IMG/VR virus record: IMGVR_UViG_3300022660_000042
Length of the DNA: 64,000 nucleotides
Strand: one strand, 5' to 3'
Source: a virus
Taxonomy: Duplodnaviria > Heunggongvirae > Uroviricota > Caudoviricetes
The translations under genes were made by a program, and so were the position numbers. The notes under the pieces are model-generated. The model was not told the origin of the DNA. It worked only from the letters and a program-made list of their open reading frames with translations, and did not search any database. Below, in pieces: positions 6 through 61,655 of the stretch; positions within the stretch are counted from its first letter, which is position 1; each line of letters opens with the position of its first letter.

Positions 6-287
6 ATGGATATTATTTTGGTGAATAAAAAATATGGTTACGAATCAAAGATCCCGTTTCCGTTAGTAGAACCGGTTAGACTTTGGGAAAACACTGCAAT
101 GATTTTAAACGGCGGTAAAAAGAACTATAGTATATGGGCATCGGATTTTGAAGATTTGAACCTTATTCTTCCAAATAATACAAAATTAGTTCTTAAAGAT
201 TTTAAAAATGTAAAGGAACTATATGATTATATAGTTCCTATCCTAAACAACGAAGAAAACAAATTTGTACTTGAAAACTATATTTAA
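6..287 (+). CDS. hypothetical small protein, CT-tag variant
   Basis: 93-aa ORF ending EENKFVLENYI. Confidence 0.7.
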   Translation: MDIILVNKKYGYESKIPFPLVEPVRLWENTAMILNGGKKNYSIWASDFEDLNLILPNNTKLVLKDFKNVKELYDYIVPILNNEENKFVLENYI

Positions 288-685
288 AGTTCGTCAAGCT
301 TATTCATGGTTTTTGCGAATTCAAGATTATCCTTTATAATATCGTGAAAACCAGAAACACTGTCATTAAATTCGTAATCATTTATTCCGTATTTCAATTT
401 AAGTTCTTTATAATCATTTTTCGTTTTATCGGTTAACACGAATATCATAAATTGACTGGTAAGATAAAAACGATTATTTAATAGTAAAATTTCACGTCCA
501 CTTACTTGTAATATCTCATTGACGTTTTCTTCATTGACAGCAAGTGCCTGAAAATAAACCGTAGGCTTATCTTTATATGAATACGTAATATATGGAACTT
601 CTGAAATTACGTTCGTAATGTCAACGGCCGTTTTACCATTGACTACTGCTGTACTAACACGATGTTTATGAAATTTTAAACCCAT
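284..685 (-). CDS. hypothetical protein, CT-tag
   Basis: start moved to ATG 685, 1 nt after the upstream stop; ends KTMNKLDEL. Confidence 0.7.
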   Translation of the reverse strand: MGLKFHKHRVSTAVVNGKTAVDITNVISEVPYITYSYKDKPTVYFQALAVNEENVNEILQVSGREILLLNNRFYLTSQFMIFVLTDKTKNDYKELKLKYGINDYEFNDSVSGFHDIIKDNLEFAKTMNKLDEL

Positions 686-686
686 T

Positions 687-962
687 TTAAAGCTTCTCGA
701 TAGCATTATTAGTTCTAAATTTTTCGACAGCGACGGTAAACTTATCATAATTTTCCTTATTATAAAGGTCCCCGTATTTTGTACCATTCAGAATAACACA
801 ATCATTCTTGTTCTTGGTTATCATATACCACGATTTGGTATTATTCATTTGGTCTACTTTAATTTGAATAACACCACCTTTTACGATTAAACTCGTAATA
901 TCGGTGAATTCCACACGTTTTTGTGAATAACGACCCGTACTTATAAATAGTTCATTTTTCAT
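687..962 (-). CDS. hypothetical small protein, CT-tag, leaderless
   Basis: TTGACA-N17-TATATT-N7-ATG; ends NNAIEKL. Confidence 0.8.
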   Translation of the reverse strand: MKNELFISTGRYSQKRVEFTDITSLIVKGGVIQIKVDQMNNTKSWYMITKNKNDCVILNGTKYGDLYNKENYDKFTVAVEKFRTNNAIEKL

Positions 963-981
963 ATTATATAATATAACAAAC

Positions 982-1290
982 TTAATCCAGTTTGTCAATA
1001 GCTTTTTCTACGTTATATTTTTCAATATACGGCGAAATCAGGTCTATAAATTCATGTATAGGTTTTGTTTTGTCAAAATGTATGCTAATATCATTATACA
1101 TGAAATAGGCTTCAGCTTCTATATCGTTTGGGTCTATCATAATAGATATTCTTTGATGAGTAAATTCATCTTCATAACAACAGCCCAAATAACCGTCTGC
1201 GTCATTAGCATATATCAATTCTCCGACACTCCACATAACCCGGTGGTTTCTATTAATCATACGTAATTTTATAGTAGGCGGTCTCTGCAT
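982..1290 (-). CDS. hypothetical small protein, CT-tag, leaderless
   Basis: TTTACA-N17-TATATT-N6-ATG; ends EKAIDKLD. Confidence 0.8.
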   Translation of the reverse strand: MQRPPTIKLRMINRNHRVMWSVGELIYANDADGYLGCCYEDEFTHQRISIMIDPNDIEAEAYFMYNDISIHFDKTKPIHEFIDLISPYIEKYNVEKAIDKLD

Positions 1291-1296
1291 ACTCAT

Positions 1297-1364
1297 AATA
1301 TAGTAATTCAGTTCTTATTTGTAAACCCGTTGACGGTTTTAAAATATTTTGCTATATTATTAGC
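1297..1364. promoter_or_regulatory. back-to-back sigma70-type early promoters
   Basis: TTGACG...TATATT on + and TTTACA...TATATT on -, each 6 nt before an ATG. Confidence 0.7.
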
Positions 1365-1691
1365 ATGACAAAACCTAAGATTTTAATCTATCATTTTTCG
1401 TATGACCCAGAAGAGTTCGATATTGATAGGTTTAATGATTTCGTTATCAGAGAGAATTTGTCAACGGGTACAGCTTTAGCTGTACCGTTGACTTCTCCAA
1501 AATTACGTAGTATTAGGAACAGAATTGCATTTATTCCGCAAAGTCATTTTAATCATAAAGATGTATATTTTATGATAGATGACGTAAAATATGAGTTTCC
1601 CGGTAAACCGCTTCATGAAATTTATAAAACAATGTCAGAAGCAATATATGAAAAAATAGTAGAATATAAGCTTTCGGTGTTAAATGGCTAA
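1365..1691 (+). CDS. hypothetical small protein, family A-like, leaderless
   Basis: FMIDDVKY hairpin motif; ends EYKLSVLNG. Confidence 0.8.
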   Translation: MTKPKILIYHFSYDPEEFDIDRFNDFVIRENLSTGTALAVPLTSPKLRSIRNRIAFIPQSHFNHKDVYFMIDDVKYEFPGKPLHEIYKTMSEAIYEKIVEYKLSVLNG

Positions 1692-2025
1692 TATAGTAGC
1701 GTTTAGATATACAGAAAAATACAAGCCACTTTTAGGTGGTAAAGAAATCCCAGTAAGTCAAATGAATTTCAATGACGAAATTCATGCATATTCCAATTTA
1801 TATAAAGGATATACAACAGTCGCTTTTTGCGGTATAAAGAAATGGGCCGAGGCTGAATATACTCTTTATTATTATGTCAAATGGTTTGCTACTGAAGAGA
1901 TAAGATTGAGCTGGGACGATAATTGCTATGTCATTTATGATGGTGTCAAATATACTACTGTAGAAAAACTGTATGCCGCGATAGAAAATAAGAAAAATCT
2001 AGCAATACTTGATACTTACCTATAA
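1684..2025 (+). CDS. hypothetical small protein, family A-like
   Basis: VIYDGVKY motif; ends NLAILDTYL. Confidence 0.8.
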   Translation: MANIVAFRYTEKYKPLLGGKEIPVSQMNFNDEIHAYSNLYKGYTTVAFCGIKKWAEAEYTLYYYVKWFATEEIRLSWDDNCYVIYDGVKYTTVEKLYAAIENKKNLAILDTYL

Positions 2026-2052
2026 AAAATGACGGACCGCCAGATCCGTCAT
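2024..2052 (-). terminator. intrinsic terminator
   Basis: ATGACGGA/TCCGTCAT stem with an A6 tract between convergent genes. Confidence 0.65.
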
Positions 2053-2103
2053 GAATTATCATATTGTTGAAACGTGTTCGACAAAGAACCAATATGATAA
2101 AAT

Positions 2104-2616
2104 TTAAATTGCGTCAGTACCAGAACGATTTTCGATAATCTTGAAGATTGCTTCAAGCTTCGGTTTTAAAGTTTCCTCTGCCTCGTCGAAATCTTCAGCC
2201 ATATACGGAATCATTTCCTTGATGGCTTCTGTAACTTTAGCACGGATAGAATCCTCTTTTTCTATAACTTCTGTTTCGCCCCAACCTGGGTCATAGGTTC
2301 CGAAATCACGTCCATCCCAGCTTGGTTCTTCGCCAGTATAGCGAACTTCGACTTCGATTGAATTACCGTCACCGCCTGTAGAATCATACTGCTCATCGAA
2401 ATCCTTAACAAAACCAGGAAGGATCTCTTCGATTTTGGCGACTTCTTCCTTTGTAACGCCCAAGCGACAAGTCAAATCAAAAGACTTCTTAAGCGGATTA
2501 CCATGATAATCCAGCAATTTATCAATATAGATAGGAACTTTTACTGTGTCATCATTATAATGTTCACAGACATATCCGTTATTTTCCAAAATAATCAAAG
2601 ATTCGCTTACTTTCAT
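2104..2616 (-). CDS. acidic late protein, possible internal head protein
   Basis: TATAAATA at 2634-2641 and GAGGT RBS; N-terminus MKVSESLIILE; D/E-rich. Confidence 0.7.
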   Translation of the reverse strand: MKVSESLIILENNGYVCEHYNDDTVKVPIYIDKLLDYHGNPLKKSFDLTCRLGVTKEEVAKIEEILPGFVKDFDEQYDSTGGDGNSIEVEVRYTGEEPSWDGRDFGTYDPGWGETEVIEKEDSIRAKVTEAIKEMIPYMAEDFDEAEETLKPKLEAIFKIIENRSGTDAI

Positions 2617-2680
2617 TATAACCTCATTTTTATTATTTATAGCATTGACGAAAAGTGAATCTCTTGCTATATTTAGTAAC

Positions 2681-2962
2681 ATGACACGAAATACGCAAAA
2701 TACAATTTCAACTATCTGGATTTTTCTTGCATCATTCGTATTTACCTTTATGGTAGGCTGGATTGTTTATGAAATGATTGAAAAATCTCCAGATATTGAT
2801 TATACGAAGAGTTATAGTGTCGAAGAAGTACAGAAGCTTGTTGATGAAAAAGTTACTAATGTAACCTGTGGAGTAATCAATAATGAAATTCTGTGTATCT
2901 ATACTAATCACAAAACTTCTCGTAATCCGGTATTTTGTACTGTTAAATGGAATGGTAAATAA
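2681..2962 (+). CDS. membrane protein (1 TM), leaderless
   Basis: hydrophobic IWIFLASFVFTFMVGWIVY; TTGACG-N17-TATATT promoter. Confidence 0.7.
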   Translation: MTRNTQNTISTIWIFLASFVFTFMVGWIVYEMIEKSPDIDYTKSYSVEEVQKLVDEKVTNVTCGVINNEILCIYTNHKTSRNPVFCTVKWNGK

Positions 2963-2971
2963 AGGAAAATC

Positions 2972-3259
2972 ATGGTACCTCTCAAATATACAATCGGAAT
3001 TCTGGCAATTTATGTAGCCTTGTTCATAATTCTTGGTTTTATAAGTCTGCCGACACTTTTATTGGTGTTAGGTATAATGTTCGTTATTTCGACAATTATC
3101 TATGTTGTCATACTCATTGAAGAAAGGATTTGGACATATTCGCTTATCTGGGACAATCTTATTGGATATGCCGCAATGGCCTACGGTATCGTATTCTTCC
3201 TTCTTCCGATTATCGTCCTTAATTGCATCGAAGACAGAATAGAACGTAACGAAAGATGA
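2972..3259 (+). CDS. small multi-pass membrane protein
   Basis: three hydrophobic stretches in 95 aa; AAGGA RBS. Confidence 0.7.
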   Translation: MVPLKYTIGILAIYVALFIILGFISLPTLLLVLGIMFVISTIIYVVILIEERIWTYSLIWDNLIGYAAMAYGIVFFLLPIIVLNCIEDRIERNER

Positions 3260-3260
3260 T

Positions 3261-3590
3261 ATGATTAATGTTATTTTTACAAATGACGGATATACACAAC
3301 AACATGATGTTGCTGAAATTGATAACGTCAATATAGACGAACATCCTAGTTTTGTAGAAGCATGTGAGCAAAAAGACATCGTTAATAATACCATGATAAC
3401 TCTTACATGGAGATCTTCAGATTATCATGGATTATATGTTTTAAAGCTTGGAACATTTCCGCTTTATAAGGCATATTTAGAAATTGACGGAAAGAAATAT
3501 ATGTATACCGACATAATGAAAAATATTGAAAAATTCAAAGCCAGGATTGAACAGGAAAAAGTTAAACTTGCATTGGAGACATTAGCATGA
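3261..3590 (+). CDS. family A paralogue, CT-tag
   Basis: YLEIDGKKYMYTDI...KLALETLA. Confidence 0.85.
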   Translation: MINVIFTNDGYTQQHDVAEIDNVNIDEHPSFVEACEQKDIVNNTMITLTWRSSDYHGLYVLKLGTFPLYKAYLEIDGKKYMYTDIMKNIEKFKARIEQEKVKLALETLA

Positions 3591-3874
3591 TTAAGTTTAC
3601 ACTTGATGGTAGAAACTATGAAATCGAATCCATGCAAGATTTTTCTCTTTGGGTTCATTACGAATCAAAACATAGAAAACGAGAAAACTATATTAAAGCA
3701 GAAGTACGTCCTGTAGGTTATGAAGCACATCATGTTTTTGAACTGAGAAACGAAGATAGTATACAGATTGACGATAAAAAGTTTGACCTTCCATATATTT
3801 GTGAACATTTTGATTTGATTAAATCTAAAATTTTACATAATCTTGAACTTAAATGCCTGGATAATTTAGCATGA
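3587..3874 (+). CDS. family A paralogue, CT-tag
   Basis: ATGA overlap; IQIDDKKF...KCLDNLA. Confidence 0.85.
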   Translation: MIKFTLDGRNYEIESMQDFSLWVHYESKHRKRENYIKAEVRPVGYEAHHVFELRNEDSIQIDDKKFDLPYICEHFDLIKSKILHNLELKCLDNLA

Positions 3875-4155
3875 TTAAACTTATTAGAGAATATCATTAT
3901 TCGCGTTCAGATGACCATTATGTAGTAAAGCAACTGTTTGGTTTTGAAAAATCTAGTAATGGCATAAGTCTTTTCTTTGAAGACCAAATGGGAAAAAACC
4001 AAATGATAAATACAGCCGATACAGAAAAAACAGAAACAAAACTGTATATAAACGACATTCTTTATACAAACAAAGATATTATGTGGAAATTTGATAAAAT
4101 TTCTGCACTGTTAACTCAAGATATAAATTTGACAGCTATTGAGTCTCTTCCATAG
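3871..4155 (+). CDS. family A paralogue, CT-tag
   Basis: ATGA overlap; LYINDILY...TAIESLP. Confidence 0.85.
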   Translation: MIKLIREYHYSRSDDHYVVKQLFGFEKSSNGISLFFEDQMGKNQMINTADTEKTETKLYINDILYTNKDIMWKFDKISALLTQDINLTAIESLP

Positions 4156-4163
4156 AGGAATAT

Positions 4164-4532
4164 ATGGATTTTGAAAAAATAAAGAAAAATGAATGTTTTT
4201 CGAAACAGATGATTCTGGATAATCCAAATCAGCCATATATTTTTAGATATGATAAATGGGATAATTATGACCTGATTATACCAATAGAAACCAATGATTC
4301 TACTACCCATATACTTGGTGCGGTTTTCCATTATGAAGATGAAAATACATATTTATACAACGGTTGTTCTTATATAAATCTTCTCGGTGTAAATCTTAAG
4401 AGTATGAAATTGTTTACTCCGCAAAAAGAAATCGAATATGATGCATCTGTTGATGATTATCATGATTTTAGAGATAAAGTTATTATGGTGTTAAATCAAT
4501 TCGAATCCATAGAGGCCGTGGATAGATTATGA
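4164..4532 (+). CDS. small protein, CT-tag
   Basis: AGAGGA RBS; ends IEAVDRL. Confidence 0.85.
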   Translation: MDFEKIKKNECFSKQMILDNPNQPYIFRYDKWDNYDLIIPIETNDSTTHILGAVFHYEDENTYLYNGCSYINLLGVNLKSMKLFTPQKEIEYDASVDDYHDFRDKVIMVLNQFESIEAVDRL

Positions 4533-4876
4533 AGTTCATTGTAAAAATCGGTAATAATATAGCCATAACATATGAGATGATAGCTCTCGAAGGCATATTT
4601 ATCGAAAGGCCGAGTACTAAATTTACAAATTCACAACAGGACATGATTGATTACAAAACAATCTATATCCATTTTCATTATTCAAAGAGAAACAACCGCG
4701 AAGTACATGCCAATATAACTATGCCTATTGGTGAATTTCTTGACGGTAATAAAATGATGTATATAGATGCTGGAAAAGAACAGATTTATTACAAAGATAT
4801 TGTTGCAAATCCGGCAAAAGCAGCAGTCAGGATAAATAACCTCATTTTACTTGATACTATCGAGGCTTTGCCATAA
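4529..4876 (+). CDS. family A paralogue, CT-tag
   Basis: ATGA overlap; YIDAGKEQIYYKDI...DTIEALP. Confidence 0.85.
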   Translation: MKFIVKIGNNIAITYEMIALEGIFIERPSTKFTNSQQDMIDYKTIYIHFHYSKRNNREVHANITMPIGEFLDGNKMMYIDAGKEQIYYKDIVANPAKAAVRINNLILLDTIEALP

Positions 4877-4886
4877 CAGTATTACT

Positions 4887-5174
4887 ATGTTAATAGAGCT
4901 TTATCCAAATAAAAAATATAGAGTGCCATCTAAAATTAAGCACGTCAATAAAATTGTTGCCGAAAAAACGGAACCTCTTTCATTTATTGATTTTATAGAT
5001 ACAGATGATAAACCGCATATCATGGTTATCGGTACAGAATCTATAATAGTAGTTGACTATGGACCGGTTGAATTACCTTTAATATTTAGTTATAAAGATA
5101 TATTAGAAAATCCGGAAGCTATTACAGCAAAACTACATAATTTAGAAAACGAAGCTGTACTTGACAGATTATAG
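4887..5174 (+). CDS. family A paralogue, CT-tag
   Basis: start moved to MLIELY; FSYKDI...EAVLDRL. Confidence 0.8.
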   Translation: MLIELYPNKKYRVPSKIKHVNKIVAEKTEPLSFIDFIDTDDKPHIMVIGTESIIVVDYGPVELPLIFSYKDILENPEAITAKLHNLENEAVLDRL

Positions 5175-5212
5175 CCATTGACAAAAATGAGATTTTTTGC
5201 TATATTAAAACC

Positions 5213-5530
5213 ATGATTAGACTTATCATGGAATCAAAACCTCATGAACAATGGGAACAGCATAGGCAGTTTAAAGTAAAATCTGCCGTTCTTATTAAGC
5301 AAAAAACTCATAGTCAATATGAGTCGGATTTGATTGTCCAATATACGTCGTTTAATAATAGTTCTTATAATAGTTATGGATTTGAAGCTCAATTTGAAAA
5401 AGAAACGCATAGATTATTGCTTGAAATCGGCGGCGAAGTTTACGGGCATGATGATTTGATTAAAAACGTCGATAAGTATAATGCATTGCTGGAAAACGAA
5501 GCTATAAAAGAAGCAATAGACAGATTATGA
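5213..5530 (+). CDS. family A paralogue, CT-tag, leaderless
   Basis: TTGACA-N17-TATATT-N6-ATG; LEIGGEVY...EAIDRL. Confidence 0.85.
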   Translation: MIRLIMESKPHEQWEQHRQFKVKSAVLIKQKTHSQYESDLIVQYTSFNNSSYNSYGFEAQFEKETHRLLLEIGGEVYGHDDLIKNVDKYNALLENEAIKEAIDRL

Positions 5531-5823
5531 TTCGAATAATATACAGACAATATAATGAAAAAACCAAGAAATGGGAAATGAATTTAGCATTTCCCGTTTA
5601 TCAAGCGGAATTGTCTGTTAATACTAATAAATTAATCGATATTAAATATAAAAATTATTACGGTCATGATTTCTTAACAACATTCAAGAATTCTAATGAT
5701 ACACAGATGACGCTTGAATTTGATGATGAAGAATATAGTATTCTTGATATGATTAATAATTTTGATAAAGTAAAGTCAAAAGTTTATAACGAATACCTAC
5801 ATGATATTTTGGAAGCATTATGA
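5527..5823 (+). CDS. family A paralogue, CT-tag
   Basis: ATGA overlap; LEFDDEEY...DILEAL. Confidence 0.85.
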   Translation: MIRIIYRQYNEKTKKWEMNLAFPVYQAELSVNTNKLIDIKYKNYYGHDFLTTFKNSNDTQMTLEFDDEEYSILDMINNFDKVKSKVYNEYLHDILEAL

Positions 5824-6158
5824 TTAAAGTTGTCAGAAAAATGACATATGATAATGAACCCACGACCACGACATTTTATGTTCTTGGTCCTTATGTTTTT
5901 CGTACAGTAGTAAGTTCTAGACAATATATTTGTTTAGGCTATACTGATATTAAAAGAGAAATTAAAGAGCCGTATGAACATAAACCAAATTATTTTATTT
6001 TAGGAATTGTTACCAATTCCTCAGGTAAAAATTATAATACATGGCTTGAAACAGACGCTGGCACGTTTACTGACCAATATATAGATAAACATCTGGATAA
6101 AGTCAACGCTATATTGACTCAGGAATCCAACAAAGAAATTCTTGATTGCCTACCATGA
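5820..6158 (+). CDS. family A paralogue, CT-tag
   Basis: ATGA overlap; ends EILDCLP. Confidence 0.85.
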   Translation: MIKVVRKMTYDNEPTTTTFYVLGPYVFRTVVSSRQYICLGYTDIKREIKEPYEHKPNYFILGIVTNSSGKNYNTWLETDAGTFTDQYIDKHLDKVNAILTQESNKEILDCLP

Positions 6159-6454
6159 TTAGTGTGACCCAATATAAGAAAGATAATACGTTCCATTCAA
6201 AAGTGGATTTGCCGACCTATACTAATAAAAATTGGAATCCTTATTTAAGTAATAATCCGTATCATCAATATAGGCTTTATATAGCATATGTTTCGCCAGT
6301 AGGTAGACTTGAATCCGTATATCTGGATCCTCGAAGTATATTAAGAATCGGCGACCAAACATATGATTTTAATTATATGCAAAAAAATATGGACCGTATC
6401 AATACGTTGATAGAACAGGAAATAACTCGAGAAGCTATAGAGAAACTGCCATGA
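6155..6454 (+). CDS. family A paralogue, CT-tag
   Basis: ATGA overlap at 6155; LRIGDQTY...EAIEKLP. Confidence 0.85.
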   Translation: MISVTQYKKDNTFHSKVDLPTYTNKNWNPYLSNNPYHQYRLYIAYVSPVGRLESVYLDPRSILRIGDQTYDFNYMQKNMDRINTLIEQEITREAIEKLP

Positions 6455-6771
6455 TTAAACTTGCTATTTATCATTTAGACGAAGGTATAGACGCTAAAAT
6501 AATAGAATGGGGAGAAATACAAGAAATCGGTTATGGCGATTTTTATTTTTGTTATAGAGTGAATAATGGAAATCATCCGCAATATATCTATTTAACAAAT
6601 ACTGAACATAGATATGTTTCAGTTTTTATTAACGAAAAAGAATATATTATTACAAATCCTCACAGCCCATCTGGACCCACAATTAGCCGACTTTTAAAAA
6701 TTAAAGATAAAATTAATGCTTTAATAGTACAAGAAAATATTAAAACTGCAATCGATTCTTTGCCGGGGTAA
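6451..6771 (+). CDS. family A paralogue, CT-tag
   Basis: VFINEKEY...TAIDSLPG. Confidence 0.85.
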   Translation: MIKLAIYHLDEGIDAKIIEWGEIQEIGYGDFYFCYRVNNGNHPQYIYLTNTEHRYVSVFINEKEYIITNPHSPSGPTISRLLKIKDKINALIVQENIKTAIDSLPG

Positions 6772-6773
6772 TA

Positions 6774-7121
6774 ATGGTTGAAATTATAACAAAACGACAT
6801 ACCAATTCAAAAGATTATATCAATCGTAAAGTTTCTGGGCTTTATTTAACTGCTAGAGATGAATATTCAGATGGCCAAATAGATAAAATGAACGGTATCG
6901 TAGTAACTGCAACATTTAAATATGTTGATAATGACCAAAAGAGTTATTCATGGATTCTTGGGCATTTTAAATATTGGACAGGTACAGCAATTCATAATTA
7001 TACTAATTATATTAAAGTAGGTAAACTAAGTTTTTGGTATAAAGATATAATTGAAAATGTTGATAGAATCAATGCACTCATTCAGCAAGAATATTTAAAA
7101 GACGCATTGGAGAAATTATAA
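6774..7121 (+). CDS. family A paralogue, CT-tag
   Basis: YIKVGKLSFWYKDI...DALEKL. Confidence 0.85.
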   Translation: MVEIITKRHTNSKDYINRKVSGLYLTARDEYSDGQIDKMNGIVVTATFKYVDNDQKSYSWILGHFKYWTGTAIHNYTNYIKVGKLSFWYKDIIENVDRINALIQQEYLKDALEKL

Positions 7122-7507
7122 TGAGCGAAAACTTGATATACATGGAATATATGGGAAGTCAACATGTATTTGTTCCAGATAATGAAATAGTTAAGTGTAT
7201 TGAAAAGAGTTCTGACATTACGGATATATATTTGCCTGGAAAATTTTATAATTTATCTAATAACAAAAAGTGGTTAGTTTATGACCCTCTTTTAATAGGT
7301 ACTGAGCTATATTTAAATATATGGCGTGATTGGACATACCATGACGGTTCATTTGAAATAAAATTTGTTCATAAATCGGCAGATGATGATGACCTGTATG
7401 CTAAAATTAGAGATGCTAACAAAAAAGAATTTCTTATCTGCATTAACAAACTGTATATTCATTATAAGAATAAAGAAACTTTGGATATTATAGAAAAACT
7501 ACCATGA
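7121..7507 (+). CDS. small protein, CT-tag
   Basis: TAATG overlap; ends DIIEKLP. Confidence 0.85.
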   Translation: MSENLIYMEYMGSQHVFVPDNEIVKCIEKSSDITDIYLPGKFYNLSNNKKWLVYDPLLIGTELYLNIWRDWTYHDGSFEIKFVHKSADDDDLYAKIRDANKKEFLICINKLYIHYKNKETLDIIEKLP

Positions 7508-7788
7508 TTGTACTTTACGACGGTTTTACAAGATTACGTGCTCGAAATGTAACTGTTACGGCATTACATGATAATGCGCCGGATCCAAGATATTTTTATA
7601 AAGTTGATTTTTATGACATAGGAAATCTTCATAAAGATTCTTTTACTATTTCCATTTATGACGCTGATGCATATATTCAAATTAATAATACCAAATATAC
7701 TTATTGTGACTTGGAACATGATTTATCCAATATACAAGTAGAATTGGAAAAAGAAAATATTTTACATGCGATTGAGAATTTACCATGA
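7504..7788 (+). CDS. family A paralogue, CT-tag
   Basis: YIQINNTKYTYCD...HAIENLP. Confidence 0.85.
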   Translation: MIVLYDGFTRLRARNVTVTALHDNAPDPRYFYKVDFYDIGNLHKDSFTISIYDADAYIQINNTKYTYCDLEHDLSNIQVELEKENILHAIENLP

Positions 7789-8066: not shown

Positions 8067-8124
8067 GGGTTGACAATTACTTTATCGTTTACTATATTAA
8101 CGGTATAAACAAAAAGGAACAATC

Positions 8125-8568: not shown

Positions 8569-8580
8569 GGAGAAACTACC

Positions 8581-13712: not shown

Positions 13713-13722
13713 AGTAACCTAT

Positions 13723-16659: not shown

Positions 16660-16666
16660 ATATTAC

Positions 16667-47062: not shown

Positions 47063-47096
47063 GACTTGTGAGCCTTCGGGCTCTTTGTTGAACGAA

Positions 47097-47130
47097 AGGT
47101 GGTAGTCTGAAATATGACTACCACTTTTTT
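47097..47130 (+). terminator. intrinsic terminator
   Basis: GTGGTAGTC/GACTACCAC stem followed by T6. Confidence 0.75.
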
Positions 47131-53828: not shown

Positions 53829-54227
53829 ATGAGCATTAACAAGACATCAAAACTGCTTCGCATTCTTAAAACACATACTGGTCTGATTCAAACAAAGCCA
53901 GTCGGAAAGGAATTGAGGTTTGACTACAACTTTCAAGGGTTTCATCTGCCTGTTGTAGAACCGTATCTCATGAGTGAAGGTTATCTTCAAAAGAAGTATT
54001 TTTGGATTTATAACTTTTTTGACTATTCACACCTGCATGACTATTGCATGGAAGACATATTGTCTGGTAGAAATAATGTAAACAATAATACTGTATTCGT
54101 AGTCCAGTATGACAGGATGACAGTGCCCAAGCTGCCTAAGTTTATTGACCAACAAATTGAATACATCCAAAAGGCTATCATGCGGTTTGAACAGCAAAAG
54201 ATTGAAAAGGCATTGGATGCTCTGTAA
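53829..54227 (+). CDS. small protein, CT-tag, leaderless
   Basis: ends IEKALDAL. Confidence 0.8.
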   Translation: MSINKTSKLLRILKTHTGLIQTKPVGKELRFDYNFQGFHLPVVEPYLMSEGYLQKKYFWIYNFFDYSHLHDYCMEDILSGRNNVNNNTVFVVQYDRMTVPKLPKFIDQQIEYIQKAIMRFEQQKIEKALDAL

Positions 54228-54680: not shown

Positions 54681-54977
54681 ATGAAACGAATCAAGATTGA
54701 ACGCCTCACGGAAAAAGACTTATTTATCCCGTATGAGAAGATAGTTGGAGTAACCGGCGGGCCAAGTACGATTCTGATAGATTACAAGACCGTCGACGAT
54801 ATGGGCTGGCATGTATGGCTCGCAAACGAGACCACGATGAGCTGGACAAGAATCGACGACGACGGAAGCCAGGTAAAGAATACGCTGGTAACTAACGAGG
54901 ATTTCAAGGCGTTTGTCGAATTCCTCACCGCAGTTGCCAAACAGAACGAGAGTGTCAAGGCGATAGAAAGTTTATAG
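54681..54977 (+). CDS. small protein, CT-tag, leaderless
   Basis: ends SVKAIESL. Confidence 0.8.
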   Translation: MKRIKIERLTEKDLFIPYEKIVGVTGGPSTILIDYKTVDDMGWHVWLANETTMSWTRIDDDGSQVKNTLVTNEDFKAFVEFLTAVAKQNESVKAIESL

Positions 54978-55069
54978 TTATGGAACACCGCAATAAAAAT
55001 TTTACTAGATTCCGGGTTTACAAGTTCCAAGAATTTAACTATAACAATAAACAAAAAGGAAACAAAATC

Positions 55070-55600
55070 ATGAGTACTAAAAGTGCAGAAGAAACCATCC
55101 GCGGACTGATTCAGGCCGCTAAGGAAAACGCTCCCGAACACCAGACGGTCGACGGAATCGAATCCTGGAAGATTACCATGGACGGTGAAGTCTACAAGGT
55201 GTCTGTCGCGGACCGCAAGGCGAAGACCGGTCGAGCGTTCAACTGTCATGGCCTGGTGAAGATTCTCCCGGACGGAACGGAAGAAACGGTTAACCTCGGC
55301 GCCTGGAAGAAGAAGTTGTTCTACACTCTGGCCTACAACCTCCAGCAGGGCAAGGTGTTCAAGAAGAACGAACAGAATCCGACCAAGGTGAAGGCAATCG
55401 TCAAGGACATGAAGGAAAACCCGGCCAACTACACCAAGAGCGAAGACCTTATCCAGGGCACGTTCAACGGCAAGCCGATTACCGTTTCCCGCACGAAGAA
55501 GACCTACAAGTCTGGCAAGAGCATGTATCGCATCACGATGAGCGAATGCGGCATCGTCACCCTGAAGGGTTCCCAGCTCCAGCCGCTCTTCAAGGCATAA
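55070..55600 (+). CDS. basic hypothetical protein
   Basis: AAAGGA RBS before MSTKSAEE. Confidence 0.8.
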   Translation: MSTKSAEETIRGLIQAAKENAPEHQTVDGIESWKITMDGEVYKVSVADRKAKTGRAFNCHGLVKILPDGTEETVNLGAWKKKLFYTLAYNLQQGKVFKKNEQNPTKVKAIVKDMKENPANYTKSEDLIQGTFNGKPITVSRTKKTYKSGKSMYRITMSECGIVTLKGSQLQPLFKA

Positions 55601-55681
55601 CCGAAAGAAAAAACCCAAATGTTTCTGTTTACGCCTTGTCCATGGTTTTCTATATTGTAATTAACAACGAGAGGAAAGATT

Positions 55682-55843
55682 ATGGACAAGGCTAAAGAAA
55701 CAAAGAGAATGCGTGATGAAAGAATCAAAGAATCCGAAAACGGTCGCAAGCTCCGAACCAAAACTGTCCGAGACCGAACAAAGTATACCCGAAAAGGAAA
55801 ACTTCGTTTTGACAGTAAAACAGGAGAGATACAACGGCCTTAG
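55682..55843 (+). CDS. 53-aa basic protein, ArfA-like motif (not in ORF track)
   Basis: promoter and GAGAGGA RBS; RKLRTKTVRDRTKYTRKGK. Confidence 0.45.
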   Translation: MDKAKETKRMRDERIKESENGRKLRTKTVRDRTKYTRKGKLRFDSKTGEIQRP

Positions 55844-56063
55844 CCGCAACATCTACGCTGTTGACCTCGTGAAGATCGAAGAAGACGAATATGACCCGGA
55901 GGAATACGAACTGACCTATAACGGGCCGGGCGGAACACATACGTTGTCTATTCGTAAAAAGGACACGTACCTTGTCAACGGAAAGGAAATCCCTTTCGAA
56001 AAGGTACAGGCCTATCTCGAGAACCTGAGGACCGCTGCTGTAATCGATGCTCTCCCGGAATAA
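55713..56063 (+). CDS. family A-like protein, CT-tag (start uncertain)
   Basis: YLVNGKEI...AAVIDALPE; 5' part overlaps the ArfA-like ORF. Confidence 0.7.
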   Translation: MMKESKNPKTVASSEPKLSETEQSIPEKENFVLTVKQERYNGLSRNIYAVDLVKIEEDEYDPEEYELTYNGPGGTHTLSIRKKDTYLVNGKEIPFEKVQAYLENLRTAAVIDALPE

Positions 56064-56141
56064 TTATTTTCTTCCTTGTCGTTTACAAAAAGAGAAAATT
56101 ATTCTATATTAAAAATATCAACCAACAACAAGAGGTAATAA

Positions 56142-56786
56142 ATGTCTGAAAAGAACGAATCCGTAGAACAGAAGGCCGAAGCCCAGCAGGAAGCACCCAA
56201 GGTCATCTACATCTACAAGAAACACAAGAACAAGAAGAAAAAGAAGACGAATCCCAAGCCCTGTCACAACGGCGGTTATCGCATGGCCGATTTGGAAAAG
56301 GTCATGACTCCGCTCGAACTCGCCCAGTATAACAAGAAGAAGGAAGATCTTAACAAGGCCCTTACGGAACTCAACAAGCTCAAGACGCAGGCCAACAACC
56401 TCAGTGAATATACGGACCGGGTGTTTAATCGCCTCAGTCTCGGTAACATCGACGGTTACATCAAGCTTCTCTCCAAGCAGGTCAGACCGCTTCTTGAAAA
56501 TATCAAGCGCTGGAAGAGCTGTGTCAATGATATTCGTGCCGATATTAAGGGAATCCTTGCACCGGCCATCAAGCGTCTTGACAATATCAATTCCAAGGAA
56601 CCGTACAAGCCGCAGGAAGTTCTTCGCCGCTTTACAGCCGATGTCAAGGCCGGCGAAAGCACTCCGAAGAAGGGAAGCTACACCCTCAGCCGACACGATG
56701 CTCTCGTGCTTGTGAAGGAAATTTCCGATGTCATCACTGGAAATCCCAAGGCACAACGCATTGAAATCTTTATCGCATCGAATTAG
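56142..56786 (+). CDS. coiled-coil hypothetical protein
   Basis: Lys-rich N-terminus and heptad segment. Confidence 0.8.
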   Translation: MSEKNESVEQKAEAQQEAPKVIYIYKKHKNKKKKKTNPKPCHNGGYRMADLEKVMTPLELAQYNKKKEDLNKALTELNKLKTQANNLSEYTDRVFNRLSLGNIDGYIKLLSKQVRPLLENIKRWKSCVNDIRADIKGILAPAIKRLDNINSKEPYKPQEVLRRFTADVKAGESTPKKGSYTLSRHDALVLVKEISDVITGNPKAQRIEIFIASN

Positions 56787-56893
56787 AGTTTATCCTCTAG
56801 TTGATTGGGACGGACGATCTACAGGATCGCCCGTCTTTTTATTTGGCAATATTTTATGTTTACGACTTCTATGTATTTTATTATATTTGGAAT

Positions 56894-57277
56894 ATGAGGT
56901 TATTACTAAACATTGAACAGATTGCAAAAGAACTTGGACTTGAATGCTGGAACGAATCCGGTTTTGTCAATGTCCGAATCGGTATGGCTGACTGGGATGG
57001 GACAGGTATCGAAACCGACATGGTTATAAAATACTATCATGGACCATATACCGACGAATGGGGTCATACCGCGATGAAACGTGAAGAATTCCAGTTGATA
57101 ACTAGACAACTATTCCCCGGGTCTATATCTTTAAACTACATAGACAACGATGACAAGCTTTTTTCGTTCTTGGCTGGGTTTATATTGGTCAAGAATGATA
57201 TTGGCTCATGGAGAAAAAACTACATAACTGCCCAATATAACCGGGAAATGGAAGCGATGCTGGCGGTCCTGAGCTAA
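56894..57277 (+). CDS. small protein, CT-tag, leaderless
   Basis: TATATT-N6-ATG 56894; ends EAMLAVLS. Confidence 0.75.
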   Translation: MRLLLNIEQIAKELGLECWNESGFVNVRIGMADWDGTGIETDMVIKYYHGPYTDEWGHTAMKREEFQLITRQLFPGSISLNYIDNDDKLFSFLAGFILVKNDIGSWRKNYITAQYNREMEAMLAVLS

Positions 57278-57331
57278 AAATTCTCTTCCGTTCCTGTTTA
57301 CATCTTCCGAATATTTACCTATATTATAAGC

Positions 57332-57676
57332 ATGGAAGCAAAAGTAAGTTCTTTAACAAATGCACAGGTCAAACAGTTACGTGCAGAAGGTATATTGGAT
57401 TCGGAAGGTGCATATAACCTGCCTACTTCATCGTTTTTTGAAGCACTTACTGTAAACAATATGCTTTGGGAGTATAAGGAAAGCGAGTTTGACAGTTGTT
57501 ATCTAAAAAACGGTAGACTAGAGTGTAAGTTTGAGCCTGGCTCAGTACCTGTCGTTAAAAGTAGCCGTAAAGAGTTGTATAATTATGCGGTAACTGTGCA
57601 TAAGAGGCTTTGGTCCATTTATAATAAGCTTCGCAACAAGGAACTGTTGGACATGATTGATAAGAACCTGGGATAA
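57332..57676 (+). CDS. small protein, CT-tag variant, leaderless
   Basis: ends LLDMIDKNLG. Confidence 0.8.
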   Translation: MEAKVSSLTNAQVKQLRAEGILDSEGAYNLPTSSFFEALTVNNMLWEYKESEFDSCYLKNGRLECKFEPGSVPVVKSSRKELYNYAVTVHKRLWSIYNKLRNKELLDMIDKNLG

Positions 57677-57756
57677 TCCGTAATAAAATTTCCTTTGGTT
57701 TGAGTTTACAACTTCCGACTATTTAACTATATTTAGAACATAAACAAGAGGTTATA

Positions 57757-58251
57757 ATGTTTATCGAATTCTTCAAAAGATTTTTGCCCGGTGTTAAATC
57801 GTTCCATGACATGGTGCAGGACAGGAAAAATTATATCGATGCGCTCCGTAGAACTACACCGTCGATTTTAAGAAAGAGTCTAAACCATGTAACAGACCGT
57901 AAGTTTATGAAAGATCTCTTGAGACGTCTGTATTGTTATAAGGACCATTCTGTTCGTTATCGGATTGTCTTTACAGATAACCTCACTTATGGTGGTAGTC
58001 TCAAAACCATTTTTAATATAAACAAGAATTTTGGCCTTGCATTTGACGAATCTGAAATCAGGTTCTATTTCAACAACGATTTACAACTTGCCGATTACGA
58101 CTATGAAACAACGATAAAGGAAACGCTTGACCAAATCTTAAGTCCTTATGACCTTATGGTTATACAGGATGACTACCATAGAAATATAATAACTCCTGTC
58201 AGCGATGCCGATAAGGAACTTGCGACCTATTGTCGTAATGCCTGGGACTAA
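57757..58251 (+). CDS. hypothetical protein
   Basis: cassette-type promoter and RBS. Confidence 0.8.
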   Translation: MFIEFFKRFLPGVKSFHDMVQDRKNYIDALRRTTPSILRKSLNHVTDRKFMKDLLRRLYCYKDHSVRYRIVFTDNLTYGGSLKTIFNINKNFGLAFDESEIRFYFNNDLQLADYDYETTIKETLDQILSPYDLMVIQDDYHRNIITPVSDADKELATYCRNAWD

Positions 58252-58329
58252 TCGAAAAGAATTTTAGAAAAGATTTGGCTTACAACTTCTAAATCTTTTT
58301 CTATATTAAGAATATCAAAAGAGGAATAA

Positions 58330-59220
58330 ATGATTAAATACAAAACCATCCACGTCGACACCACTTCCCTTGACAACATCTTCAAGAATGTTCTCGACCT
58401 TCACAAGAAGGTAAGCGACATCAAGTGCCCGACGCTCCAGTGTCCGCAACCTGATACTCCGGAAGTCAAAAAGTACCAAGAAGACCGAGCAAAGGCGACA
58501 GTCAAAGTCAGACTGGAACAGGTCAAATACATGAAGGAATTCTTCAAGCTGTTCAAGGACCGTTACATCAAGCTGTGCTGGCAGGGACAGAAGGCAAGGT
58601 ATTACCATATCGGTGACGTGAACATTAAGGCTGTGCCGAAGAAAAAGATTGACCAATGTACTTGGTGGGAACAGACGTTCGCGATTGACGAAAACAAAAC
58701 CTACTTGGCGACATCTTCCAATACTGTGTCTTTGTCCACAAGCTTTGTCGATGCGTATGTTCGTGGTTCCAGAGTCCCGGGTGGTTTCCCGTTCAGTGAA
58801 TACAACACCATGTACATTACGGAAATTACCAAGAAGGAATTCGCCGCCATCGACAAGACTGCACTTCCCGAAGGCATTAACCATAACGTATCGTGTGCCA
58901 TCAGCCCGTGGGTAATGAAAAATGGCGGTAACATTACCGACCGTGCCGAATTGAAACGTCTTGAACTTGAAATTACGCTCGCCAACAAGCAGCTTGCTTT
59001 GGTCAAGGAACGTAAGAACAACTTCTGCATCCGTCAAAACCAGGTCGAAACGATTAAGAAGGCACCAAAGGAAGTAAAGACTGCGTTCAAGTATGCGTTC
59101 AAGGACCAGATTGAAAAGTCTGACCACAAGATTGAACTTCTTGAAAAACAGATCGCGAAGTACAAGGACGAACTTAAAAATAAAACCTATCTTGATAAGG
59201 TTGACAAGAAAAAGAAATAA
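58330..59220 (+). CDS. hypothetical protein with C-terminal coiled coil
   Basis: 296 aa; hairpin promoter. Confidence 0.8.
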   Translation: MIKYKTIHVDTTSLDNIFKNVLDLHKKVSDIKCPTLQCPQPDTPEVKKYQEDRAKATVKVRLEQVKYMKEFFKLFKDRYIKLCWQGQKARYYHIGDVNIKAVPKKKIDQCTWWEQTFAIDENKTYLATSSNTVSLSTSFVDAYVRGSRVPGGFPFSEYNTMYITEITKKEFAAIDKTALPEGINHNVSCAISPWVMKNGGNITDRAELKRLELEITLANKQLALVKERKNNFCIRQNQVETIKKAPKEVKTAFKYAFKDQIEKSDHKIELLEKQIAKYKDELKNKTYLDKVDKKKK

Positions 59221-59238
59221 AGCTATATTGATAGCGTT

Positions 59239-59312
59239 GGATGGATAGCTCAATCGGTTAGAGCTCCGGACTCATAACCCGTAGGTTCTCGGTTCAAGTC
59301 CGAGTCCATCCA
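59239..59312 (+). tRNA. tRNA with CAT anticodon (Met or Ile2)
   Basis: GGATGGA/TCCATCC acceptor, GCTC/GAGC D stem, CTCATAA loop, CTCGG-TTCAAGT-CCGAG T arm; TTGACA-N17-TATATT promoter. Confidence 0.9.
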
Positions 59313-59319
59313 TGAAAGC

Positions 59320-59392
59320 CTTCAGGTAACACTGAAGGTTTTTTCTTTATATAATCGGTTTACAACTTCTAAGTATTTAACTATATTTAGAA
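59320..59392 (+). repeat. 73-bp direct repeat, copy 1 (terminator plus promoter cassette)
   Basis: identical to 60143-60215. Confidence 0.95.
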
Positions 59393-59412
59393 CATAAACA
59401 AGAGGTTATTAA

Positions 59413-60108
59413 ATGATAGATATAATTATTGGTTCTGCTATTAGTGCTGCAATCGCTGCTCCTGATATGGGTTCTGTATATTATACAATTAAAAATCTTG
59501 AAAGCCGTATAACAGAATCTATAAGAACTATACAAGGTCAATTGGATATTATTAAAGCATTACAAATACTTACAATTTATGGTGCAGTAAAAGATGCTAC
59601 CGGTAATATTGTATATACTGCTGAAGATAACAGTAAAATTGAATATAATATTGAACATAATGATATTCGTTGTTATTTATCAACGGGTGAATTGTTTTCA
59701 ATAAACGGAGTAAAACAAATAGTTTTTAAAGAATTTTCTGCAAATGATGGAAGCATATTTACAATAGGTTTTTGTGATGATTTTGTTGTTATAATCGCAA
59801 AAGATAAAAAAGTAATTGACATTCCAACATATTTGCCAAGAGATGAACATTTAATTGAGAAACATTGGTATAATAAGAAAAAGCGTTATAATTATTTGAT
59901 AAATATACGACAAAAGCGATTATTAAATAATAATACCGTTAAAAATTTTTTAAATAAATATCCGGAAATTATACCATATTACAATAAATGGATATTTAAC
60001 ATATATGATAAAACGTTGTTTCGAGCATTTATTGCATCACGGCTGCATGGTAATATTTCAACGTCTGCATATAATCATGTTATGTATCTGTATAATCGAA
60101 ATCGATGA
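59413..60108 (+). CDS. very AT-rich hypothetical protein flanked by direct repeats
   Basis: 231 aa; AGAGGT RBS. Confidence 0.8.
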   Translation: MIDIIIGSAISAAIAAPDMGSVYYTIKNLESRITESIRTIQGQLDIIKALQILTIYGAVKDATGNIVYTAEDNSKIEYNIEHNDIRCYLSTGELFSINGVKQIVFKEFSANDGSIFTIGFCDDFVVIIAKDKKVIDIPTYLPRDEHLIEKHWYNKKKRYNYLINIRQKRLLNNNTVKNFLNKYPEIIPYYNKWIFNIYDKTLFRAFIASRLHGNISTSAYNHVMYLYNRNR

Positions 60109-60142
60109 GATGATTTAAATAATATTTGATATTTTTCGCAAT

Positions 60143-60215
60143 CTTCAGGTAACACTGAAGGTTTTTTCTTTATATAATCGGTTTACAACTTCTAAGTATT
60201 TAACTATATTTAGAA
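60143..60215 (+). repeat. 73-bp direct repeat, copy 2
   Basis: identical to 59320-59392. Confidence 0.95.
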
Positions 60216-60216
60216 T

Positions 60217-60537
60217 ATGATAACGTTAAAGCTAAGATATGATAAGACAGTTTCGTTGAATTCTCGAGTTTGTGACATAGAGAATATATCGATGGCGTTC
60301 AGTAGGGTACTGGACGAAGGGTATATCAATGTGACAAAGAAATGTGTCCCACCGATACAGATATATACGCCGCGAAACGTGGACCAACGGATTACATTTT
60401 ACGATTCCGGACGGAAGATGAAGGAATTTGTTTTGCCGGCGAATTCGGGCGTAAAAACGTTAATTAACATGTGCGAACAGGTTAAAATGTTCAACGAGTA
60501 CGCGAAGACAATCACTGCGATAGACAATCTGAAATAA
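60217..60537 (+). CDS. small protein, CT-tag, leaderless
   Basis: ends TITAIDNLK. Confidence 0.8.
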   Translation: MITLKLRYDKTVSLNSRVCDIENISMAFSRVLDEGYINVTKKCVPPIQIYTPRNVDQRITFYDSGRKMKEFVLPANSGVKTLINMCEQVKMFNEYAKTITAIDNLK

Positions 60538-60611
60538 AATATTAAACAGGTTTTATTTACAACATTTGAATATTTAACTATATTTAGAACATAAACAAGA
60601 GGTTATTAAGT

Positions 60612-61061
60612 ATGAGACCAATAGAATTTGCAATGGTTATGAAGAATTTTCCGTATAATAATCAAACGATGATTATCCGTAAGCAGCCAAAACTTCACGG
60701 TATTGGTATCTGCACGGCCATTCAGGACTATGCCAAGGCTAACAACGTTGAATGTGTGGTAATCAATTTGGCCACATGCGATGACTTCTTCCTCCATGAA
60801 CTTGACGCATTAATAACGTTCCGCCAGGGAAAGAACTTCGTCTGTGTGTTTGATTTCACCACTGGATGTGGTAAGCCGGACAGTTCGCTCAAGGAACATC
60901 TCATGCAACTGTTGATTCATCGCGAACATAATGGCTTTAAGATTCCATATAACGTGAAGGTTGTTATCTATGACAACATCCTTGAAGAAAAAGAATACGA
61001 ACGGATTAACTTTGACGTTGCTATGATGGACAAATGTTTCGTCTGTAAGATTGAAGAATAA
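60612..61061 (+). CDS. degenerate (inactive) MoxR-like AAA domain
   Basis: aligns by eye to 45908 (HGIG, MQL, Y..D.A..D) with Walker A K->I and Walker B DE->DF. Confidence 0.65.
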   Translation: MRPIEFAMVMKNFPYNNQTMIIRKQPKLHGIGICTAIQDYAKANNVECVVINLATCDDFFLHELDALITFRQGKNFVCVFDFTTGCGKPDSSLKEHLMQLLIHREHNGFKIPYNVKVVIYDNILEEKEYERINFDVAMMDKCFVCKIEE

Positions 61062-61112
61062 AACCTTTATGGTTTTATTTACAGCTTCTGGATATTTAAC
61101 TATATTTAGAAC

Positions 61113-61655
61113 ATGAAAAAGAAATACGAATTTACGGAAATTACCGTTAACGATGCCGGATTCATCATGCATCAAATCCGAGCGCTCAAAGACTTCGATG
61201 ACGTGAAAGCTGGTGACCTTGGCGGCTTTATCCTTAACGAAAGCAATCTGTCTCACAAGGGTAATTGCTGGGTCTATCCTGGTTCTTTCATCGGAAACAA
61301 GGCCAGAGTGACCGGCAATGCAAAGGTAAAAGGCAATAGTGTTGTTCGTAATACGGCCAGGGTTTATGAAAATGCGGTCATTGACAACGGTGCGGATATT
61401 TACACCGCGGCTAGGATTCATGGCAATGCCTATGTTGGCGGTCAGTTAGAAGTTAACCGTTCAGAAATCTGTGGTGATGCTCATGTAGAAGGTCATGGTA
61501 TCGGTTGCCATATCTCAGGGCAGACAGTTATCCGTGACAATGCACATGTATACCTTGAAGAAATGTCCATCTATGGAAAGATTATCAAGGACAATGAAAA
61601 AGTTGTTAAGATTAAATCACATAAAGAAACGATGGAAGCCCTTGCCAAGCTGTAA
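61113..61655 (+). CDS. left-handed beta-helix (hexapeptide repeat) phage protein, CT-tag, leaderless
   Basis: IRALKDF..VKAGDLGG...SNLSH.GNCWV then A.V..NA.V repeats; ends KETMEALAKL. Confidence 0.85.
   Translation: MKKKYEFTEITVNDAGFIMHQIRALKDFDDVKAGDLGGFILNESNLSHKGNCWVYPGSFIGNKARVTGNAKVKGNSVVRNTARVYENAVIDNGADIYTAARIHGNAYVGGQLEVNRSEICGDAHVEGHGIGCHISGQTVIRDNAHVYLEEMSIYGKIIKDNEKVVKIKSHKETMEALAKL

Follow-up and report, generated by a model that had tools for sequence, protein, structure and literature searches.

We describe a C-terminal tail shared by many small proteins of an uncultured, rumen-type T4-like jumbo phage of about 420 kb, found in a window of 64,000 nucleotides (nt; the whole stretch of DNA that was analysed) from IMG/VR virus record IMGVR_UViG_3300022660_000042. 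The tail is maintained mainly by selection on the protein, with an overlay of selection at the RNA level. We propose, at a probability of roughly 45%, that it is a portable docking handle, which one partner would read as an amphipathic helix, with the variable bodies of the carrier proteins giving specificity. Huge phages possess hundreds of small early genes without known function, and the tail is present on about a third of those in this region. A shared handle would represent a single experimental entry point to all carriers, and it might reveal a hub for host control.

The tail is far too frequent to be a product of composition. Our gene set consisted of 112 likely window genes, with 122 non-genic shadow open reading frames (ORFs) for comparison. 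The strict pattern, [AT][ILV][DE].L.{0,3}$, ends 23 of the 112 proteins, against an expectation of 0.07-0.11 calculated from its internal frequency and from shuffled proteins, so that the shared ending reported in a preliminary description of the window is borne out. The middle pattern, [ILV][DE].L.{0,3}$, was observed in 33 proteins (1.2 expected) and a broad form in 50 (3.5-4 expected), and neither the strict nor the middle pattern occurs among the shadow ORFs. As a further measure, we used a 10-residue tail matrix built solely from 76 representatives of family A, the main carrier family, from outside the window (consensus ENTKDAIEAL). It marks 42 window proteins at p<0.01, where about one would be expected. 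Even among the 80 proteins without an alignment to family A, 14 reach p<0.01 (0.8 expected) and seven reach p<0.001 (0.08 expected). All 13 tails quoted in the preliminary description are present as written, and its size range of 81-224 amino acids (aa) and the occurrence of carriers on both strands are correct; the coordinates it attached to the tails are the low coordinates of the genes, which correspond to the C-terminus for minus-strand genes but not for plus-strand ones. The core block at 11.8-31.4 kb is free of the tail, as had been claimed, with the exception of one 80-aa ORF (29366-29608) that ends in FIEQLNR.

The element had been presented as a five-residue peptide. Its conserved stretch is in fact 10-15 aa long, and about 30 aa long within family A. 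Its consensus reads E-x-(T/L)-x-x-A-[IL]-[DE]-x-L. What comes next is a helix stop (P, PG or G), a different residue (A, K, D or E; PE and SG also occur) or nothing at all. In family A, the last Leu is followed by Pro in 67 of 109 sequences and by no residue in 20. Numbered from that Leu, the information content of family A peaks at A(-4), I/L(-3), E/D(-2), L(0) and P(+1), with further peaks at Q/N(-10), E(-9), A(-14), L(-13), I(-12), I(-16), N(-20) and I(-23). On a helical wheel, positions -23 to -12 form a hydrophobic stripe at 200-260 degrees, and positions -7, -4, -3 and 0 form a patch at 320-60 degrees, a shift of the hydrophobic face of about 160 degrees. The terminal A/I/L patch is therefore a separate surface, off the face that presumably packs on the sheet. 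Judged from this pattern, it would be compatible with a binding patch and also with packing on another element of the domain. We found no description of such a motif in the literature on jumbo or rumen phages.

Most carriers (about 30 of the 42, roughly two thirds of them) belong to family A or align to its hairpin-helix module. This family comprises 17 tandem genes (3261-9167) and some 13-15 dispersed small genes, whose products are built from a beta domain of about 95 aa, a hairpin ([ND]-G-x-x-[YF]-x-Y) and a 25-residue C-terminal helix (...N-x-[DE]-K-I-x-A-L-I-E-Q-E-x-x-x-x-A-I-E-A-L-P). The profile of the array recruits dispersed members, and for others hhalign aligns the C-terminal 35-45 residues with the end of the profile, in the same register. 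Beyond the last 30 residues the members barely recognise each other: the E-values of tail-trimmed leave-one-out profiles are mostly above 0.1, and BLAST and pairwise hhalign comparisons of tail-trimmed carriers yielded almost no links. A search of 1.84 billion representative proteins with the family-A profile retrieved 89 clusters at 50% identity, all of 61-124 aa, and in nearly all of them the match to the profile stops at most a few residues short of the C-terminus. The number of copies at the same locus varies from 17 in the window to about 20-30 in the relatives L007 and L005. Family A is thus a hyper-divergent, clade-restricted and undescribed family, seen only in this group of rumen-type jumbo T4-like phages.

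The AlphaFold2 (AF2) model of one array member (8581-8880, 99 residues) has a predicted local distance difference test (pLDDT) score of 92.5 and forms a single domain with seven strands and helices at residues 72-77 and 79-96. In family A, the tail therefore makes up the final two turns of a helix that belongs to the fold itself. No significant fold match to this model was obtained in pdb, afdb_clusters, pdb_via_wide or atlas. The best VIA-align rows are nearly all PH, PTB or FACT-type domains, with Z values of 3-4.3 that are below a meaningful level; Foldseek E-values are above 0.3 overall, and COMM domains appear among the weak rows from Foldseek and Atlas (E>0.5, template modelling score 0.33-0.51). 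A PH/PTB-like sandwich is a candidate fold, as its topology fits the seven strands and long C-terminal helix of the model and as PH domains, too, are best conserved in this helix, although Z values are just 3-4.3 and Foldseek gave no match in pdb or afdb.

The preliminary description had spoken of about 50 otherwise dissimilar proteins. This was overstated, as some 30 of the carriers belong to family A or align to its hairpin-helix module, but the tail does occur on several families, namely family A, a second family (family L), a beta-solenoid protein and singletons. A full match to family A was found neither for families L and C nor for the beta-solenoid protein nor for the products of the genes starting at 51208, 48912, 53829, 60217, 40444 and 41148, which align by the tail only or not at all. 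Pfam and PHROGs searches with 20 carriers gave no match other than for the beta-solenoid protein. Family L consists of four window genes encoding 134-157 aa (starting at 34019, 35165, 35597 and 36904) and five genes in the relative L014, and all its members end in I-[DN]-x-L-P-G. When the profiles of families L and A are compared, the last 15 columns alone align, with the C-termini in register (probability 64%, E 6.5e-5). The singleton carriers, starting at 51208 (NKTMKAIEALA), 48912 (RETMEALDRLD), 53829 (EKALDAL), 60217 (TAIDNLK) and 40444 (GRAIATLK), have no detected relative, and look-alike searches in the ESM Atlas with the 51208 and 36904 products returned nothing usable.

The beta-solenoid protein is encoded at 61113-61655 (+; 180 aa). 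Its residues 1-164 match phrog_5070 (E 7.6e-42), a family with an N-terminal domain and solenoid repeats of the hexapeptide/LbH type, and its tail, KETMEALAKL, lies beyond the family match. The family is widespread, with 199 homologues, for many of which PF18836 is precomputed. Among the 120 homologues listed, the tail is found on only the 11 closest (53-96% identity; ETMEAIAKL, DTLKAIEQL, DTLKSIEELK and DAVKAINGL), and homologues from Bartonella and elsewhere have quite different ends. Among the listed homologues, the family thus carries the tail in this phage clade only. In the AF2 model (pLDDT 70.7), a solenoid of short strands is followed by low-confidence residues 161-170 (pLDDT 54) and a helix at 170-179, such that the tail looks like an appended, tethered 10-residue helix.

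How far the motif is imposed by the protein, and how far by the nucleic acid, could be judged from relatives. Between the window and its L005 and L007 orthologues, the last 20 residues differ by 0.09-0.12 at the amino-acid level and the upstream part by 0.18-0.22, and synonymous differences are the same in tail and body (0.14-0.16). Amino-acid change in the tail is thus about half that in the body at equal synonymous rates, in line with the earlier claim that conservation is mainly at the protein level. Likewise, codons differ between tails, as had been noted: every synonymous codon occurs at the A, I/L and L positions. The relative L012, which is syntenic with 54980-61655 and has 55% G + C content (GC) against about 40% here, retains the tails ALDCLD, AIDAL, IDELPG, LETLG, ILDVLD, TIKSLP and AINGL. 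Almost all of these stand at the end of a gene that is not closely followed by another start, mostly before long intergenic regions. In the window, 23 of the 42 carrier genes have no downstream gene within 12 nt, so the statement that monocistronic genes keep the motif also stands.

An RNA-level signal is nevertheless written into the tail. The ribosome-binding site of the phage is GAGG, 5-8 nt upstream of the start, and Glu(-2) is encoded by GAG in 49 of 64 distinct tails, as opposed to 16% for other Glu codons in the same genes (p 3e-26). Where an ATG follows 4-12 nt downstream, GAG outnumbers the other codon by 41:7; elsewhere the ratio is 8:8. This dual coding with the Shine-Dalgarno sequence explains one codon, not the motif, and about a third of the tails have Asp (GAT/GAC) instead of Glu. 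L-P and L-A ends often result from CCATGA and GCATGA junctions, but the Pro is kept also where there is no overlap. Where genes are tightly packed, at 35-37 kb, the I-D and L-N codons occupy the -35 position of the next promoter; in the 35597-36020 gene, for instance, ATCGACA of the I-D-N codons lies at the would-be -35 box. The earlier caveat that tail codons can double as Shine-Dalgarno sequences or -35 boxes is thus real, but it concerns one codon and a few packed genes. The Glu codon illustrates that the coding of a conserved residue can at the same time spell out a ribosome-binding site.

Between 34.5 and 64 kb, almost every gene lies behind its own T4-early-type promoter, GTTTACAA-N-CTATATTAT, in full (G)TTTACAA, about 17 nt and (C)TATATT(A/T), which corresponds to the sigma70/T4-early type GTTTACAA-N17-TATATT. 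Two spacing classes are found. In the first, the -10 box lies about 13 nt before the ATG and there is no ribosome-binding site, an arrangement that apparently gives leaderless mRNAs; in the second, the distance is about 30 nt and a GAGG site is present. The same promoters also occur at 1303, 1352, 5200, 8092, 11110, 15862, 18389, 22068, 31377, 32568 and 33968, and core replication genes (helicase, Rad50, DHH) have the short class. Because of these promoters, the carriers are early genes, read by a sigma70-type polymerase, which disfavours a head-loading signal of the T4 kind and makes virion loading, one of the options put forward initially, a poor fit. In T4, the capsid-targeting signal lies at the N-terminus of late proteins, with cleavage at [LI]-x-E. 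We rejected it as a model for the tail, which is C-terminal, is borne by genes with early-type promoters and lacks an [LI]-x-E register (A is at P3 relative to Glu).

If the tail is a docking handle, each carrier would consist of a fast-evolving body, probably responsible for binding diverse host or defence targets, and an amphipathic helix end that stays constant. The common partner would then be a phage or host protein present early that reads the tail as a helix, and not via its free carboxylate. Several points weigh against this proposal. No receptor or partner of the tail was identified in these sequence and model analyses. In family A, the tail belongs to a helix that is modelled confidently and without a break (pLDDT 94 for the last block), and it may, according to the model, simply pack on its own domain. 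The beta-solenoid protein is the sole carrier demonstrably of a different fold, its model is just moderately confident (70.7), and trimeric left-handed beta-helix proteins often use C-terminal helices to assemble. Like family A, family L and several singletons consist of a beta-rich region followed by a long C-terminal helix, and they could be unrecognised distant relatives of that family. Finally, one part of the motif, the acidic residue at a fixed distance from the stop codon, is also under RNA-level selection.

A rival explanation is common descent alone, which we consider possible, if somewhat unlikely. Nearly all carriers would then derive from one ancient superfamily of small proteins in which, as in PH-like folds, the C-terminal capping helix is the structural element that is best conserved, and nothing would read the tail. 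The few odd carriers, such as the beta-solenoid protein, would have arisen by 3'-end recombination in a hyperplastic early region and would keep the helix for their own stability. The alignment of about 30 of the 42 carriers to the family-A module, the integration of the helix in a confidently modelled fold, the helix-capped PH/PTB-like beta-sandwiches among the best weak structural rows (Z up to 4.3), the beta-then-helix layout of family L and the singletons and a copy number that ranges from 17 to about 30 between relatives all fit such a history. It sits less well with the profile comparison of families A and L, which share nothing beyond 15 residues. Nor does it explain why the 10-residue tail of the beta-solenoid protein, behind a flexible linker, is kept down to 53% identity and at 55% GC, or why the polar residues Q/N(-10), E(-9) and E(-2) are conserved and the hydrophobic face changes, neither of which is needed for simple core packing. 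Were the tail no more than a conserved helix within a single expanded family, the result would still be useful, as it defines a previously undescribed family that is confined to this clade and has a confidently predicted fold.

It is tempting to extend the docking proposal to a viral adaptor system, in which dozens of early proteins per genome would each grasp a different host or defence target with a hypervariable body, and the constant helix end would plug into a single hub, although we regard so specific a scheme as unlikely. It would make the carriers a phage counterpart to the ankyrin/F-box families of poxviruses. The hub could be an AAA+ machine or protease, of the phage or of its host, or else an assembly that the phage builds, and the handle would have to be portable enough for grafting onto a captured beta-solenoid protein.

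Also unlikely is the idea that the helix ends bind each other, making the carriers homo- or hetero-oligomers in the manner of COMM-domain proteins, which oligomerise via a beta-sheet plus a C-terminal helix. An amphipathic terminal helix with a separate hydrophobic patch would suit this role, and COMM domains appear among the weak structural rows cited above. Those rows are far below significance, and a helix of 10 residues is short for a stable bundle. Computational support was not obtained: the homodimer prediction for one family-A member scored 0.39 against a mark of 0.42, which is evidence neither way.

A role of the tail in turnover, as a degron or a stabilising element setting the lifetime of early proteins via a host or phage protease or unfoldase, appears very unlikely. 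In its favour, every carrier gene is an early accessory one, AAA+ proteins are encoded in the window (MoxR-type, 45908-47062), and C-terminal non-polar helices serve as degrons for AAA+ proteases. On the other hand, the 0-3 variable residues after the last Leu disfavour readers that measure the distance to the carboxylate, such as PDZ domains, Tsp and ClpX/ssrA. For the same reason we discarded class III PDZ ligands, an option of the preliminary description, together with other carboxylate-anchored ligands and ssrA-type degrons. Moreover, the family-A tail is part of a folded helix, and no protease gene is linked to the carriers. As for the notion that the motif is only a by-product of ribosome-binding sites, overlapping starts or -35 boxes at gene 3' ends, it is largely refuted as a sole explanation by the codon variety, the uncoupled carriers, the equal synonymous divergence of tail and body and the persistence of the motif at 55% GC, in spite of the GAG bias and the junctions described above.

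The genes concerned resemble the hyperplastic early regions of T4-type and jumbo phages, with tandem coupled or single-promoter early ORFan genes that vary in copy number, diverge fast and have no database relatives. Unlike in T4, one short C-terminal sequence here spans several families and a beta-solenoid protein of foreign origin; to our knowledge, no such sharing across families has been described for the hyperplastic regions of T4. Short terminal peptides on unrelated proteins with one reader, which in our case would be the putative partner, are a feature of T4 capsid targeting, encapsulin cargo and microcompartments. The microcompartment peptides, amphipathic helices behind a linker, are similar in layout to the modelled beta-solenoid carrier, the sole carrier in which this layout was seen. 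In contrast to cargo peptides, most carrier tails continue the fold's own helix with no linker, and no shell, encapsulin or protease partner is known for them. The poxvirus ankyrin/PRANC (F-box-like) families, large and fast-evolving sets of viral paralogues, are alike in logic only, as they combine a variable target-binding body with a constant C-terminal helical module, which docks to the cellular hub Skp1 of the eukaryotic ubiquitin system. There is no sequence or structural relation between the two, and docking of the phage carriers is presumptive. Another possible parallel is offered by the tails of T4 gp43, gp33 and gp55, short acidic-hydrophobic C-terminal peptides that bind one hub, the gp45 clamp. 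A putative clamp, an unannotated 245-aa protein (15091-15828), and a clamp loader (13723-14772 and 11818-12255) are encoded in the window, outside of which lie the polymerase and late sigma genes of this phage. However, the gp45-binding motif, roughly S-L-D-F-L-F, has aromatic residues, whereas the carrier tail has none and follows a helical pattern (i, i+3).

Along the window, the carriers begin with dispersed family-A-like genes at 6-287 (+), 687-998 (-), 982-1296 (-), 1365-1691 (+) and 1684-2025 (+), assigned by the family-A profile and hhalign; the gene at 284-787 (-) has a weak tail, MNKLDEL. The array of 17 family-A genes (3261-9167, +) encodes proteins of 94-128 aa, and its genes are mostly coupled by ATGA or TAATG. 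It includes an unrelated gene (8125-8568, +; 147 aa; weak match to DUF5750, E 0.0095) that has its own promoter and no tail. This gene is well conserved, and it is found at the same place inside the array in the relatives L007 and L008.

Downstream of the array, the gene at 9481-10014 (-) encodes a 177-aa protein ending in EKALEVLG (p 8e-4), residues 130-176 of which align to positions 60-99 of the family-A profile, in the hairpin-helix module. The LEVLG group at 9.2-10.9 kb (9164-10865, -), in contrast, matches the tail weakly (p 0.008-0.02). Family C proper (9873-10223, 10220-10495 and 10551-10865) has an L-[EK]-x-L-(G) end with matrix p values of 0.014-0.019, and its profile, from three aligned members, has no similarity to those of families A and L, tail included; the unaligned neighbouring gene at 9164-9481 has the same type of end (p 0.008). 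In family C, GAG-GT also constitutes the GAGG Shine-Dalgarno sequence of the next gene. Membership of this group in the tail set is doubtful, given the lack of profile similarity, the weak matrix scores and this double use as a ribosome-binding site.

After the core block, a family-A-like carrier of 98 aa (31491-31787, -; DFALAKL) is followed by an 81-aa family-A-like protein (33378-33623, -) with the hairpin INGKTF, a helix and a degenerate tail, EIDLAGLE. Family L genes then alternate with family-A-like ones: 34019-34492 (-; family L, 157 aa, RHIDKLPG), 34573-34869 and 34866-35129 (+; family-A-like, LTLDNLK and FAIESLE), 35165-35578 (+; family L, 137 aa, DSINKLPG), 35597-36020 (+; family L), 36037-36363 and 36629-36886 (+; family-A-like, TLALLEG and IALARLK) and 36904-37356 (+; family L, 150 aa, NILNSLPG). 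The 35597-36020 gene has an in-frame TGA at 35936-35938, after which 27 codons remain open up to the end QIIDNLPG. In L014, the counterpart of this TGA is a CGA (Arg) codon, in an intact 140-aa protein that ends in IIDRLPG. The TGA is explained either by a nonsense mutation or variant of very recent date or by stop-codon read-through.

Further downstream, all on the plus strand, two larger proteins of 211 and 224 aa (40444-41822) have weaker tails, GRAIATLK (p 0.0016) and NRAIKIL (p 0.016); no relatives of either were found in Pfam or PHROGs, nor of the 224-aa protein in the phage collection. A 119-aa carrier with the tail NRETMEALDRLD (48912-49271) is monocistronic behind its own early-type promoter, and a 193-aa carrier (51208-51789; p 2.7e-4 for its tail, NKTMKAIEALA) is also monocistronic. 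Next come carriers ending in KDALASLN (53111-53398) and EKALDAL (53829-54227; 132 aa), with a tail-less gene between them (53469-53774), and family-A-like carriers ending in KAIESL (54681-54977) and AVIDALPE (55713-56063; hhalign probability 94%), again separated by a tail-less gene (54980-55600). The L012 orthologue of the 55713-56063 gene ends in GIDELPG. The gene at 56801-57277 has a weak tail, AMLAVLS, where its L012 orthologue ends in RALDCLD. A variant that is longer by one residue, MIDKNLG, occurs at 57332-57676, and also in external family-A members. The last carriers are a 106-aa protein (60217-60537; TAIDNLK, p 5e-4) and the beta-solenoid protein.

Besides the clamp loader, this part of the T4-like phage encodes gp32, a DnaB-type helicase, Rad50/Mre11 (gp46/47 type) and thymidylate synthase. 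Its gp32 is only about 28% identical to gp32 of cultured T4-type phages. No DNA-level similarity to the window was detected in the phage collection, and near-identity and protein searches of that collection gave no match for the core region, for the array or one of its members, or for the 51208, 41148 and 36904 genes. A scan of IMG/VR with the 47385 product gave none either, and a metagenome scan retrieved near-identical relatives only. The small-gene array proteins were found again on metagenomic contigs of 303-424 kb.

Other features of the window deserve mention. The small-gene array (1-8000) has a GC content of 29-34%, compared with 41-47% for the core genes (12000-32000), and a codon-usage model trained on long genes overlooks several real array genes. 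A sigma-70 family factor with regions 2 and 4 (24299-25126, -) is encoded within the replication module, next to thymidylate synthase, and the MoxR-type AAA+ gene adjoins one for a DUF2201_N protein, a putative metallopeptidase. Both gp32 and the helicase (18508-19674 and 20699-22051, -) have hydrophobic-acidic C-terminal tails that differ from the carrier tail: gp32 has an acidic C-terminus, EEAEDQDDFF..., and the helicase ends in ...EVDFNDFT. These tails may be replisome docking peptides of the phage. Lastly, where the GC content of the window is highest (47-49%), unusually long open frames on the minus strand (42474-47170) almost wholly overlap real plus-strand genes. Their lengths are 325 aa (42474-43451, over 42504-43484), 445 aa (43654-44991, over 43594-44970) and 427 aa (45887-47170, over 45908-47062), and they are probably an effect of codon bias.

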